50,775 nt of DNA from Oscillospiraceae bacterium (GTDB lineage Bacteria; Bacillota; Clostridia; Oscillospirales; Ruminococcaceae): contig JAGADP010000134.1 of NCBI GenBank assembly GCA_017828885.1, positions 1 to 50,775 of the forward strand. The letters run 5' to 3'. The position numbers and the translations under genes are program-made. Under the pieces are notes generated by a model. The model searched no databases, had not been told where the DNA came from, and was given only the letters and a program-made list of their open reading frames with translations. Shown here one piece after another: positions 33,921 through 48,860 of this stretch; within the stretch, counting starts at the first letter, position 1; the number at the start of each line of letters is the position of its first letter.

Positions 33921-34129
33921 GCGCGGAGCCCGCGCTGGCAGGTTGCTTCGCAGATTGAAAATGCACTGCTTCGTTTATCGCTTGCCCCCAATGCTTCGCA
34001 AAGGGGGCAATGCTGTTTTTTCTTCGCACATCGCAGCGAAAGCTGCTCCTGTTCCTGGCTTCGGGGTTTCAGACACGGATGCACTGCGTTCTTGATCTGC
34101 TAAGCAACCTGCCTGCCGGGTCTCCCGGC
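33921..34129 (+). repeat. structured intergenic repeat R2, copy A (full length, with terminal inverted repeats)
   Basis: Starts directly after TAA 33918-33920 with hairpin GCGCGG-AGC-CCGCGC. The left end (33921-33955) is the inverted complement of the right end (34095-34129). Internal hairpins are GCCCCC..GGGGGC and GCAGC-GAAA-GCTGC (34033-34046). Confidence 0.85.
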
Positions 34130-34332
34130 CGAAAAAGTGCGGATTATACCCATACATTCCCGTTATTTGCGATTGACAAATATGTAACATATTTAACAAA
34201 TTGCGGCAAAAGCCGTTTTTTTCTAATACGTTTCGTAAAAAACGACGGAAATTTAACGATATAGGCTTATCAAATTAAGCTACTTATACAATGTATCCCG
34301 AAGTGTGACATAATATTTGTCAAAATCGTCAA

Positions 34333-34361
34333 TTGCAAGCATGTGCAAAATAGGGTATACT
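34333..34361 (+). promoter_or_regulatory. promoter of glgP
   Basis: TTGCAA (34333-34338), 17 nt, TATACT (34356-34361). Confidence 0.5.
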
Positions 34362-34423
34362 TAATCTATGGGACTTTGCAGCCCTGTCTGCACCCCACAC
34401 CATAAGAAACCAATGGAAAGGAG

Positions 34424-36853
34424 ATGCTCCATTTTTCGGAGCATAGTAAAACAATGGCAGCAATTGAGTCCAGCGAGTTCAAGAAATTCAAGAAGATGTT
34501 CAGCGAAAAGCTGCAAACCAAGTTCAATGTGTCCCCCGATGAGGCGTCCGATCAGCAGGTCTATGAGGTGCTGTCCGCGCTGGTGGTGGATTACCTGAAG
34601 AATAAGCGCCGCAAGTTCATCAACGGCGTACACTCGGCCGGCAAGAAGCAGGTCTACTATCTCTCGATGGAGTTCCTGATGGGTCGTTCCCTCAAGACCA
34701 GCCTGTACAACCTCGAGATGGCAGACCAGGTCAAGGAGATGCTGGCGGATTTCCATATCAACATCGACAAGATCTACGAGTGCGAGCCGGATGCCGGCCT
34801 CGGCAACGGCGGTCTGGGCAGACTGGCTGCCTGCTACCTGGACGGTATGGCTACCATGGCTATGCCGGCAATGGGTCACTCCATCTGCTATGAGTACGGT
34901 ATCTTCAAGCAGAAGCTCGAGGACGGCTGGCAGACTGAGCTGCCGGACAACTGGCTCCCGGGCGGTTCCGTATGGCTCGATCCCAAGCCGGAGAAGGCTG
35001 TGGAGATCCACTTCGAGGGCGAGCTGAACGAGTACTGGGACAACCAGTATCATCACATCTCCCATGTGAATTACAACACCGTTATGGCAACGCCGGTGGA
35101 TATGTATGTTTCCGGTTATGATTCCCCCGGTGTATCTGTTCTCCGTCTGTGGAGTGCCAAGGCACCGTCCTTCAACATGGAGATGTTCAACCAGGGCGAC
35201 TATGCCAAGGCACTGGGTCAGAATTCCATCGCCAACGCGATCTCCAAGATCCTGTACCCGAACGACAATCACCTCGAGGGCAAGAGCCTGCGTCTGCGTC
35301 AGCAGTACTTCCTCTGCGCCGCTGCGATCGGTGACATTGTCAATACCCACATGAATGTATACGGCACCCTCGACAATCTGCACGAGAAGGTTGCCATCCA
35401 CATCAATGACACCCACCCGACCCTCGCTATTCCGGAGCTCATGCGCATTCTGCTCGATGACTGCGGCTACGGCTGGGAGAAGGCATGGCACATCGTGACC
35501 AACACCTTCGCCTACACCAACCACACCGTTATGGCTGAGGCGCTGGAGAAGTGGGATGTCAACATGATGAAGCACATCATCCCGAGAGTGTTCTCCATCA
35601 TCGTAGAGATCAACAACCGTTACTGCCAGCAGCTCATGGAGCGCAACGGCTACGATTCCGCCAAGACTACGAGAATGTCCATCATCAAGGACAACACCGT
35701 ACACATGGCGACCCTCTGCGTGGCAGCTTCCCACAGCGTCAACGGCGTTTCCAAGCTCCATTCCGAGATCATCAAGACCGATGTCTTTGCTGATGAAGCA
35801 AGAGATATGCCGCACAAGTTCAAGAATGTCACCAACGGTATCGCATACCGCCGCTGGCTGTACCAGTCCAACCCGGGTCTGACCGAGCTGCTGCGTGAGA
35901 AGATCGGTGACGGCTTCCTGCGTGACGGCGCAGAGCTCCAGAAGCTCGCTGTCTTTGCGGACGATGAAGAAGTCCTCGAGCGTTTCATGGCTGTCAAGAA
36001 GGAGAACAAGGAGCGCTTTGCCAAGTTTGTGAAGCATGCGACCAAGGTTGACCTCAACACCGACAGCATCTTCGATGTACAGGTAAAGCGTCTGCATGAG
36101 TACAAGCGTCAGCACCTGAATGTGATGAACATCCTGGCGCAGTACAACTACCTGCTCGACAATCCGGATGCCGAGTTCACGCCCAAGACCTATATCTTTG
36201 CGGCAAAGGCAGCACCGGGCTACTATCTGGCAAAGCAGATCATCAAGATGATCTGGGCGATCTCCGAAGAAATCCGCAAGAACCCTAGGATCTCCGAGAA
36301 GCTCGCTGTTCACTTCGTTGAGGACTACAGTGTAACGCTCTCCGAGCTGCTGATGCCCGCTTCCGACATTTCGGAGCAGATCTCCCTGGCAGGCACCGAG
36401 GCTTCCGGTACCGGCAACATGAAGCTCATGCTGAACGGCGCTGTAACGCTCGGTACGCTCGACGGTGCAAATGTCGAGATCCGTGACGCAGTCGGCGACG
36501 ACAACATCATCATCTTCGGTATGAAGACCGAGGAAGTGGCAGCCCGCAAGGAACACTACAATCCGGAGCAGCTCTACAACGAGGATCAGGTGATCCGTGA
36601 CTGCATCAACCGCATGTACCACGGCATCAACGGCTGCACCTTCGCAGAAGTTGCCAACTCTCTCAAGACCCAGGATCCGTATATGGTACTGGCAGACTTC
36701 CAGGACTACAGACGTGCGCAGGCATTCAGCACCGAGTGCTATCTCGACAAGAAGCGCTGGGCGAAGATGGCTCTGCTGAACACCGCAGGTGCCGGCATCT
36801 TCTCCGCCGACCGTGCTGTCAGCGACTACGCAAGAGACATCTGGGCTCTGTAA
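34424..36853 (+). CDS. glgP: glycogen/maltodextrin phosphorylase (GT35)
   Basis: EASGTGNMK PLP-lysine motif and full-length collinearity. The start is uncertain: ATG 34424 abuts the SD directly and sits in hairpin ATGCTCC/GGAGCAT; ATG 34457 (MAAIES) is the alternative. Confidence 0.93.
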   Translation: MLHFSEHSKTMAAIESSEFKKFKKMFSEKLQTKFNVSPDEASDQQVYEVLSALVVDYLKNKRRKFINGVHSAGKKQVYYLSMEFLMGRSLKTSLYNLEMADQVKEMLADFHINIDKIYECEPDAGLGNGGLGRLAACYLDGMATMAMPAMGHSICYEYGIFKQKLEDGWQTELPDNWLPGGSVWLDPKPEKAVEIHFEGELNEYWDNQYHHISHVNYNTVMATPVDMYVSGYDSPGVSVLRLWSAKAPSFNMEMFNQGDYAKALGQNSIANAISKILYPNDNHLEGKSLRLRQQYFLCAAAIGDIVNTHMNVYGTLDNLHEKVAIHINDTHPTLAIPELMRILLDDCGYGWEKAWHIVTNTFAYTNHTVMAEALEKWDVNMMKHIIPRVFSIIVEINNRYCQQLMERNGYDSAKTTRMSIIKDNTVHMATLCVAASHSVNGVSKLHSEIIKTDVFADEARDMPHKFKNVTNGIAYRRWLYQSNPGLTELLREKIGDGFLRDGAELQKLAVFADDEEVLERFMAVKKENKERFAKFVKHATKVDLNTDSIFDVQVKRLHEYKRQHLNVMNILAQYNYLLDNPDAEFTPKTYIFAAKAAPGYYLAKQIIKMIWAISEEIRKNPRISEKLAVHFVEDYSVTLSELLMPASDISEQISLAGTEASGTGNMKLMLNGAVTLGTLDGANVEIRDAVGDDNIIIFGMKTEEVAARKEHYNPEQLYNEDQVIRDCINRMYHGINGCTFAEVANSLKTQDPYMVLADFQDYRRAQAFSTECYLDKKRWAKMALLNTAGAGIFSADRAVSDYARDIWAL

Positions 36854-47824: not shown

Positions 47825-47838
47825 GTGGAATGCCTCCT

Positions 47839-48615
47839 TTATGATTGCTGTTTTGACTCATGGATCAGCACGTAACCGTCCTGCGTGTCTGCATGATAGG
47901 TGTTCATTGCATAATCACAGATGCTGAGATCTTCAAATTGCAGAATGTAGCGGTCGCCCGGCGCCGCATTATCCGGTACCTTGACGGTCACAAAGCATAC
48001 CGTGCTGTTATCCTCTGCGACCATATCCTGGTCGTTCGTATAGTTCGTTCCCGCAAAATAGCCGTCACGCTTATTGGTAACAAATGTGGCAGACTTGAAC
48101 GCATCGCCGCCCATCGCATCAACGACCACCAGACGGGGATCAATGCTGAGCTTCATGATGTAGCTGTTCACGCCCTTTGTGGCTCCCTTGACCTTGACTG
48201 CGATGGCAACAGTCTCGCCCGGCGTTGTTTCTATCGGTTCGATCGACCATAAGCCTGCCGAAGTCGGCTTCTCACTCGGATGGAGGAAGTCGTTCAGCGA
48301 GCCGGTACCGCCTGCACCGATATAGGCGGCATAGATCAGGATCTGTGCGGCATCCGAAGCGTTGAGGATGCCGTCCTCGTTGACATCGCCGCAGATCGTC
48401 TGTGCTTCGGTCAGACCGCTTTCATTGCCGGCGCCGATGCTGGCGGCTGCGATCAGCACCTTGGCGGCGTCACTGGCGTTGACCACGCCGTCGTTGTTGA
48501 CATCGCCGAGCATCAGGCCGTCGTTGGCCATCGCAGGCAGAACGGCGCTGCCGAGGCACATTGCTGCCATACCGAGCGCAGCGGTGCTGCTGAGAATTTT
48601 CTTTGCAAAGTTCAT
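47839..48615 (-). CDS. scaffoldin-like adaptor paralog: signal peptide, N-terminal dockerin, C-terminal cohesin
   Basis: Same architecture as 47003..47824: GDVNNDGVVNASDAAKVL…GDVNEDGILNASDAAQIL…LNDFL. The cohesin-like module is TTPGETVAIAVKVKG…NSYIMKLSIDPRLVV…TVKVPDNAAPGDRYILQF. Confidence 0.8.
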   Translation of the reverse strand: MNFAKKILSSTAALGMAAMCLGSAVLPAMANDGLMLGDVNNDGVVNASDAAKVLIAAASIGAGNESGLTEAQTICGDVNEDGILNASDAAQILIYAAYIGAGGTGSLNDFLHPSEKPTSAGLWSIEPIETTPGETVAIAVKVKGATKGVNSYIMKLSIDPRLVVVDAMGGDAFKSATFVTNKRDGYFAGTNYTNDQDMVAEDNSTVCFVTVKVPDNAAPGDRYILQFEDLSICDYAMNTYHADTQDGYVLIHESKQQS

Positions 48616-48685
48616 GTGGAATTCCTCCTTATAGTGAAATTGGTTCTCTCCGCGCTTTTAGGGGCGCAGGAAATAGCATAAATAT

Positions 48686-48860
48686 AAAATGCAGCCTGCA
48701 CCCACGATCTGAAACCCCGAAGGACTGCACAGGAGCAGCCGTATGGCTGCGATGTCCTGAACTGCACAGCATTGCAGCCTTTGCGCAGCATTGGCTGCAA
48801 GCGGGCAGAAAAGAGGTGCATTATGATCTGCGAAGCAAATCGCCCGTGGGGGCTCCCCAC
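48686..48860 (-). repeat. structured intergenic repeat R2, copy D
   Basis: On the minus strand it starts with GTGGGG-AGC-CCCCAC (48846-48860), whose first G is the last base of the TAG stop (48860-48862). TTGCTTCGCAGAT, TTGCAGCC..GGCTGCAA, GCAGCC-ATAC-GGCTGC (48735-48750), CTTCGGGGTTTCAGA. Confidence 0.8.

Follow-up and report, generated by a model that had tools for sequence, protein, structure and literature searches.

Whether a structured repeat that recurs directly behind the stop codons of unrelated genes is an RNA signal or a piece of mobile DNA is the question raised by a 50,775-nucleotide (nt) stretch of an Oscillospiraceae bacterium (assembly GCA_017828885.1, contig JAGADP010000134.1), the whole of which is here called the window. 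Four copies of the repeat (A to D; Table 1) lie inside 15 kb of it, and a comparison set of eight copies was assembled from these four, two copies in a metagenome-assembled genome (MAG) whose UDPGP protein is 95% identical to that of the window (L128A, at the site of copy A, and L128amy, behind an alpha-amylase gene), one in a metagenome contig (L120) and one in a sheep-rumen Oscillospiraceae MAG (L096). The repeats probably represent a family of small (~170-270 nt), non-coding, non-autonomous DNA elements of a narrow clade of uncultured rumen Oscillospiraceae, with a putative terminator of their own. The element's most likely role, judging from its sequence, is that of a 3'-end module in the transcript.

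Scanned with a covariance model of the eight copies, the window yields exactly four full copies, scoring 161-191 bits (E 1e-43 to 1e-52), and none in the remaining 35 kb; the only further matches in the window are the antisense of the palindromic copy A and a marginal one at 31392-31540 on the reverse strand. The original prediction, made from the letters of the window, had located all four, and the right end of copy B was extended. Copies A to D share 65-84% pairwise identity over ~170 nt, with invariant unpaired blocks, the GC content of the family is 50-59%, and a 17-base pattern describing the third hairpin occurs four times in the window against an expectation of zero. The predicted lack of coding potential was likewise borne out, as a six-frame translation of three concatenated copies had no relatives in the protein database and the open frames are attributable to chance. 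Among genome contigs the 17-base pattern is unspecific, with one true copy (L096) and otherwise chance hits among the matches listed, and a 24-base pattern with two gaps gave seven matches in metagenome contigs, one of which is real (L120).

Each of the four window copies starts between -1 and +3 nt from the stop codon of a co-oriented upstream gene. With a slash marking the junction, these read TAA/GCGCGG in copy A, TAA-GAA-GCGGGG in copy B and TAA/GCCCGG in copy C, while in copy D the G of the stop codon is itself the first stem base; furthermore, the right end of copy C lies against the stop codon of the convergent gene (TGA/GTGCG). Co-orientation with the upstream gene is observed in 8/8 copies, and the genes concerned are unrelated in function (a membrane protein, UDPGP, an aldolase, a DUF6348 protein, an amylase and a dockerin protein). 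Under uniform intergenic placement, the probability that four of four 5' ends fall at -1 to +3 of a co-oriented stop is ~1.5e-8. Across the family 10 of ~14 ends are found at -1 to +3 nt of a stop, one L128 end, which bears an extra half-hairpin, being excepted. Among the ~30 other genes of the window, only dnaX (+2) has a GC hairpin less than 7 nt from its stop, with those of the other genes that have one located at 7-28 nt. The claim that the repeat always begins at a stop codon is exact for all four window copies, but it does not extend to L120, where the upstream open reading frame (ORF) reads through two tandem copies of the first hairpin and stops inside the inverted repeat.

Three hairpins make up the conserved structure. 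When the eight copies are considered together, 98.4% of the cells are paired and 10/24 pairs have changed on both sides; none of 500 shuffles was as good, although this test overstates independence given the kinship among the copies, and slid controls were 33-57% paired. RNAalifold recovers the same three hairpins from the eight copies. Hairpin 1 is a GC palindrome of 15-17 nt (100% paired in the eight copies; three of six pairs doubly changed; -7 to -12 kcal/mol, with a triloop), with the core GGAGCCC, the loop AGC and a following (T/G/A)GGCA. Hairpins of this type were not found in 0.9 Mb of unrelated genomes, save for chance palindromes without the GGCAG flank. Hairpin 2, whose long stem is divided in two by an A-A/A-A internal loop, usually has a T-run behind it, and hairpin 3 is short with invariant flanks (CATC...TCC), its GCAGC/GCTGC being replaced by GCATCC/GGATGC in L128amy. 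The stems, loops and blocks quoted in the original prediction are all present, except that the AA loop given for copy C opens one more pair (GCAG-CAAG-CTGC), and the compensatory changes that it described in three hairpins persist on the larger set. Its conclusion that pairing-preserving substitutions reflect selection on structure is sound, but does not separate RNA from single-stranded DNA, as only 1 G.U pair occurs among 192 cells, which is unusual for a constraint acting on RNA only. Selection on hairpin formation probably maintains the pairing, whether in single-stranded DNA, in RNA or in both, and quasi-palindrome template correction could also be a source of the double changes.

Comparison against Rfam, at gathering score over the whole window, yielded only a bacterial small signal recognition particle (SRP) RNA (RF00169; 66.6 bits) at 9572-9670 (+), just 5' of dnaX. 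At E <= 10 across the region 33800-48950 no match fell on any copy, in line with the view that no catalogued RNA family fits them. A group II intron domain V, considered for its AGC triad, and a riboswitch were rejected in the absence of any Rfam signal.

Hairpin 2 with its T-run resembles an intrinsic terminator, matching in both strength and position the ordinary terminators found there in relatives (-18 to -22 kcal/mol, versus -19 to -25 for the native terminators). It was assessed by folding, as a simple terminator scan with a loop limit of 8 nt missed it. A T-rich tail follows hairpin 2 in five of the eight copies, being TGTTTTTTCTT in A, C, L128A and L128amy, with a T-rich tail also in B. 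Directly 3' of copy D, which has no T-run, are a ribosome-binding site (RBS) and a co-oriented cohesin gene. It is the strength of hairpin 2 and its tails, together with the replacement of native terminators among relatives, that suggest a portable 3'-end module.

This replacement is evident at the site of copy B. Where the window has 231 nt, a 98%-identical strain (L155) has a 48-nt intrinsic terminator (5185-5232), with near-identical flanks and the same dockerin gene downstream. The alpha-amylase site is occupied in L128 and empty in the window and L155; relative to the window, 17 nt including the last codon and TGA are replaced in L128amy by ~370 nt, the new stop being TAG. In two relatives with aldolases 95-96% identical (L145 and L158) the DUF6348 and aldolase genes are adjacent, without copy D or the two cohesin genes, and the DUF6348 gene stops with TAA, compared to TAG in the window; L158 furthermore has an ordinary terminator 3' of the aldolase gene. 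Behind UDPGP, the relatives at 92, 91, 87, 80 and 79% identity each carry a different ordinary terminator, and terminator turnover in the clade appears unusually fast, from 98% down to 79% UDPGP protein identity. These terminators are non-homologous from one relative to the next (L137, 2260-2300; L139, 5026-5106; L129, 3150-3200; L140, 7301-7350; L133, 11234-11275). The same-site copies A and L128A are 77% identical, versus 84% for A and C, with flanks at 86-88%. Several of the relatives' contigs end just past the genes concerned, as is expected at repeats. The comparison of strains confirmed presence/absence polymorphism at the B, C, D and amylase sites but not the target-site duplications that had also been envisaged, and no direct repeats flank A or C.

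The copies had also been proposed to mediate rearrangement of the dockerin/cohesin block that they bracket. For copy B this is not supported, as the same dockerin gene is present in L155 without it, and a composite transposon extending from B to C with two dockerin genes was rejected on the same grounds. The window further contains two tandem paralogous cohesin/dockerin genes at 47003-48615 (-), with 80% identity over 354 nt (47486-47839 versus 48277-48630). This extra block between the DUF6348 and aldolase genes is missing in L145 and L158, and copy D is located at one of its junctions.

The ends of the element show that its parts are modular. Copy A has terminal inverted repeats, as predicted, extending over 48 nt (77% identity), and forms a long imperfect palindrome (fold -110 kcal/mol; z = -7.9). 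Its right end consists of hairpin 1 and TGGCAGGTTGCTTCGCAGAT... in inverted orientation, with a palindrome that is different yet perfect (GCCGGG-TCT-CCCGGC). Copy C carries a GC hairpin at both ends, each against the stop codon of one of two convergent genes (TAA and TGA), also as described originally. The outer right repeat is missing in B, D, L128A and L128amy. In a relative of 87% identity (L129), two ends made up of hairpin 1 and TGGCA, one per stop codon, enclose the whole 201 nt that separate convergent PFK and TerB genes, with an interior which is unlike that of the family and holds an ordinary bidirectional terminator. Hairpin 1 occurs twice in tandem in L120, and a second hairpin 1 with its repeat is nested past hairpin 3 in L096. 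At the ends away from genes, the 5' flanks are TTCG, TTTG, CCAG and TGCG (right end of A, L120 twice and nested end of L096). The symmetric ends of A, C and the L129 element, the tandem and nested ends, the presence/absence polymorphism, the non-sister relationship of same-site copies and the contig breaks all favour a DNA repeat. Of the two candidates put forward originally, it is thus the element of the MITE (miniature inverted-repeat transposable element) or repetitive extragenic palindromic (REP) kind that is favoured, with the structured RNA module retained in part, on account of co-orientation and the terminator-like hairpin 2.

Such a DNA repeat may spread from one gene 3' end to another, by copying or by relocation, through an enzyme acting in trans that recognises the hairpin and tag of its ends, the best guess being a tyrosine/HUH transposase similar to the REP-associated tyrosine transposases (RAYTs). 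The element would arrive at a stop codon, sometimes displacing the native terminator, as is seen for copy B, and would then be co-transcribed with the gene, with hairpin 2 and its U-run predicted to end the transcript and hairpin 1 predicted to form a very stable 3' barrier at the stop codon. Several observations weigh against this reading. No transposase or RAYT gene was found in the window or in any fetched relative locus, and there is no target-site duplication, both resolved pairs of empty and filled sites being replacements (48 to 231 nt and 17 to ~370 nt). Two of the eight copies (D and L096) have no usable T-run, and transcription, termination and RNA stabilisation are all read from sequence. 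Sampling amounts to ~10 distinct copies in all, and the comparison drew on a single 50-kb contig from a metagenome together with related short contigs. Finally, no mechanism proposed here accounts for the uniform placement at 0-3 nt from each of the three stop codons (TAA, TAG and TGA), which is seen at both ends of single elements.

Four specific origins of the ends were considered and rejected. A TA or TNA target duplication, as in IS630- or IS5-like elements, is inconsistent across ends (TGA-AA and TGA-G, while the right end of A lacks TA), and a YTAR target fits only 2/8 left flanks. Hairpin 1 is not a palindrome copied from the flank in the manner of P-nucleotides, as the native flanks at empty sites differ from the left half-stem. 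Nor is it a host terminator alongside which the element inserted, since GGAGCCC is conserved and hairpin 1, travelling with the repeat, turns up at internal and far-end sites.

An unlikely alternative to a mobile DNA repeat is a dedicated cis-acting RNA motif of the 3' untranslated region (UTR), serving in termination, stabilisation or processing, in which selection acts on the RNA and spread is incidental, through duplication or recombination. Such a motif would agree with the co-orientation of 8/8 copies, their start at the stop codon, the compensation in all three hairpins, the terminator-like hairpin 2 and U-run, and the loss of the T-run in the copy that lies directly upstream of a co-oriented gene (D). 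It accords poorly with the inverted-repeat ends, which in A, C and the L129 element put a hairpin 1 on the far (antisense) side as well, outside the 3' UTR of a co-oriented gene (A) or in the service of the other gene (C). Furthermore, the L129 ends flank an unrelated interior, and elsewhere ends are tandem, nested or inside an ORF; the near lack of G.U pairs, the want of an Rfam family and the unrelated functions of the upstream genes likewise speak against an RNA motif.

A rather improbable variant would have the spread itself aimed at gene ends, the native 3' flank being replaced from the stop codon onwards and the stop sometimes re-created. The element would then be a mobile 3'-end cassette whose hairpin 1 is active in translation termination, ribosome rescue or definition of the mRNA 3' end. 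Stop codons have been rewritten from TAA to TAG at copy D, and from the last codon and TGA to TAG after the L128 amylase gene. Precision at all three stop codons and at both ends of one element is predicted neither by transposition with target-site duplication nor by known REP biology, and this nucleotide-level tie to stop codons is the sole feature of the family that could lead somewhere new.

It is quite improbable that the family comprises classical cut- or copy-and-paste MITEs derived from a DDE-type insertion sequence (IS), the location at gene ends reflecting insertion tolerance only. The terminal inverted repeats of copy A (35-48 nt), the non-coding length below 300 nt and the multiple, polymorphic copies are all typical of such elements, and another MITE in the window (39161-39344) shows a clean insertion with a 5-6-bp direct repeat, which indicates that transposition of this type operates in the lineage. 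However, no copy of the present family has a target-site duplication, the resolved sites being replacements, and the outermost 4-6 nt vary yet stay palindromic, while the tips of DDE elements are their most conserved part. Tolerance alone does not account for the share of ends at -1 to +3 nt, given the 7-28 nt of ordinary window hairpins other than that of dnaX, and most copies lack the outer right repeat. Chance likeness among independently evolved ordinary terminators, although the gene 3' flanks of this clade are rich in GC hairpins and turn over fast, with a different terminator after UDPGP in every relative, is as good as refuted by the 65-84% identity over ~170 nt, the invariant unpaired blocks, E values of 1e-43 or better and the four hairpin-3 matches where none is expected.

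If the family is indeed a mobile DNA repeat with its own terminator, a little-studied group of uncultured rumen fibre degraders would use a portable module that gives unrelated genes a stop-proximal stabiliser hairpin and a terminator. This would bear on operon and terminator prediction, on assembly, as contigs break at the repeats, and on strain typing in rumen metagenomes. The setting is that of an ordinary chromosome, the window encoding ackA, glgA, dnaX, the SRP RNA, galE/galK, type IV pilus genes, glgP, an amylase, UDPGP, an HMGL-like aldolase and dockerin/cohesin genes. The neighbours of its proteins are from MAGs labelled Oscillospiraceae bacterium, many of them rumen-derived. In ENA the window is metagenome contig k141_301474 of ERZ27256909, and a second sample holds a near-identical contig. 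The positions of the copies and their parts are given in Table 1.

Table 1 Copies of the stop-proximal repeat in the window, with their component parts
Feature	Position	Strand	Description
Copy A	33921-34129	+	Most complete copy; directly after TAA of 790-aa membrane protein gene (31548-33920)
Copy A hairpin 1	33921-33935		
Copy A left inverted repeat	33936-33969		
Copy A hairpin 2	33980-34013		
Copy A T-run	34014-34024		
Copy A hairpin 3	34033-34046		
Copy A conserved block	34059-34073		CTTCGGGGTTTCAGA
Copy A right inverted repeat	34078-34113		
Copy A second terminal palindrome	34115-34129		GCCGGG-TCT-CCCGGC
Copy B	41832-42062	+	3 nt past TAA of UDPGP gene (40602-41828); core 41832-~42000
Copy B right end	42062		Set by comparison with L155, which lacks copy B; flank identity resumes at 42063
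Copy B hairpin 1	41832-41846		
Copy B left repeat	41847-41880		Diverged
Copy B hairpin 2	41891-41926		
Copy B T-rich tail	41927-41936		TTTGCATTTT
Copy B hairpin 3	41945-41958		
Copy B conserved block	41971-41985		
Copy C	45534-45800	-	Fills whole gap between two convergent genes
Copy C hairpin 1	45786-45800		Against TAA of aldolase gene (45801-46778, -)
Copy C left repeat	45752-45785		
Copy C hairpin 2	45705-45740		
Copy C T-run	45694-45704		
Copy C hairpin 3	45674-45685		
Copy C conserved block	45647-45661		
Copy C far end	45534-45555		Hairpin-1-like palindrome GTGCG-TGCC-CGCAC, then AGGGCAGG; abuts TGA of dockerin gene ending at 45533
Copy D	48690-48860	-	Right boundary (~48690) uncertain; followed by RBS and cohesin gene start (48615)
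Copy D hairpin 1	48846-48860		First G is third base of TAG stop of DUF6348 gene (48860-49999)
Copy D left repeat	48813-48845		
Copy D hairpin 2	48769-48802		No T-run after it
Copy D hairpin 3	48735-48750		
Copy D conserved block	48708-48722		
Possible degenerate solo end	31522-31538	-	Palindrome GCACCGG-AGC-CCGGTGC, then ...TTTCGCAGAAT, in leader of 790-aa gene; marginal (6.8 bits; E 0.8)

Other repeats and palindromes occur in the same genomes. The ~184-nt repeat at 39161-39344, whose site is empty in L155 and L128, is flanked by the direct repeat GTATGA/TATGA and contains hairpins such as GCCGTCCTTGACGGC as well as a 32-nt palindrome (39301-39332); it has the appearance of a MITE that inserted cleanly and recently, with target duplication. 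A second GC-rich family of ~90 nt, with nested hairpins (GAAAAAGCGGGT...CCTCCCCC-loop-GGGGGAGG-TGCCGCCGAACGGCGGCGGAGGGGG), is found in the window between glgA and an ABC-2 transporter gene (6461-6554) and between glgP and the amylase gene (36989-37075), and in L128 at 4523-4609, 9812-9862 and 11300-11343. A sub-threshold Rfam match to whalefall-1 falls on it at 37023-37074 (17 bits versus a gathering score of 37), and the L128 contig ends in one of its copies. Also in L128, UDPGP is followed at 11225-11262 by a different stop-proximal palindrome (TAAGCAAC-TAAG-CCCCCGGGAGCTCCCCGGGGG) with an AGCT centre, which could be a relative of hairpin 1, and then by the second GC-rich family. Past the aldolase gene, L145 (2600-2863) and L149 (11000-11280) carry another MITE-like repeat, starting 25-29 nt from the stop, in which direct hairpin copies (CAGCCCCCATGCGTCAGCATGGGGGCTG...GTCTGTCAAAAAAG) surround a CCCCCTCCCC/GGGGAGGGGG hairpin. 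Two long perfect palindromes of the window, examples of those that convergent gene pairs share, at 15273-15312 (ATCCCCCTGGCAT...ATGCCAGGGGGAT) between the convergent DUF5620 and 164-aa genes and at 26660-26720 (CGGCAGTCGGA...TCCGACTGCCG) between convergent 340-aa and 295-aa genes, are ordinary bidirectional terminators located 12-26 nt from the stops.

In terms of known systems, the stop-proximal family is uncatalogued. Copy A had no BLAST match in the plasmid and phage collections, and two exact-match scans of viral contigs for the repeat sequence gave one chance match in a coding repeat. The closest analogues are REPs, MITEs and the pneumococcal SPRITE; the family works like REP and MITE elements but is a demonstrated member of neither. 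With REPs, bacterial interspersed mosaic elements (BIMEs) and REPINs it shares a short GC palindrome next to a conserved unpaired tag, stems that vary with compensation, units that stand alone, in tandem or as inverted pairs enclosing variable motifs, and positions downstream of genes and between convergent genes. REPs are preferentially located downstream of genes, and their termini have been reported to abut or supply the stop codon (TAG) of flanking ORFs (PMC3733652); stalling of ribosomes has been reported for REPs that lie within 15 nt of a stop, according to work cited in PMC12306157. The present family differs in lacking a GTAG/CGTC tag, its tag being the 3' (T/G/A)GGCA, and the TA(A/G) before hairpin 1 is the host stop, which is missing at gene-free ends. 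Its palindrome is shorter (15-17 nt, compared to 20-40 nt in REPs), and the inverted pair encloses ~140-230 nt with a terminator among them. Its host belongs to the Firmicutes (Oscillospiraceae), while REPs with a tag come mostly from proteobacteria, and no RAYT gene was seen in the sampled loci.

A terminator-like repeat of S. pneumoniae, SPRITE is enriched near the 3' ends of coding sequences (CDSs) and has no known target-site duplication or cognate IS (PMC3049150). Like it, the present family consists of small interspersed Firmicute repeats with a long stem and then a U-rich tract, near CDS 3' ends and between convergent genes, without an identified target-site duplication or cognate IS, and both have been proposed as co-opted terminators. 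They are set apart by their description, SPRITE being AT-rich (28% GC) with only AAAA/TTTT termini, in contrast to the 50-59% GC and long GC-tipped inverted repeats of the present family, which moreover has two further conserved hairpins and lies 0-3 nt from the stop. Bacterial MITEs in general are comparable (PMC10969869), and the likeness to Correia/NEMIS, RUP, ERIC and BOX extends to size, terminal inverted repeats, a strongly folding transcript, intergenic location, strain polymorphism and clustering with other repeats. In contrast to these, the present family has no target-site duplication, a palindromic and variable tip, a replaced native 3' flank and a position fixed by the stop codon. 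Integron attC sites are different, in that the present copies have no RYYYAAC/GTTRRRY core sites and form no co-oriented cassette array, occurring in both orientations after housekeeping genes, and domain scans of the window proteins revealed no integrase domain. They are nevertheless alike in being imperfect palindromes that start from or over the stop of the preceding gene and keep structure more than sequence, attC sites being recognised as folded single strands. A mobile DNA repeat of this kind would extend REP- and SPRITE-like biology to the GC-rich Clostridia.

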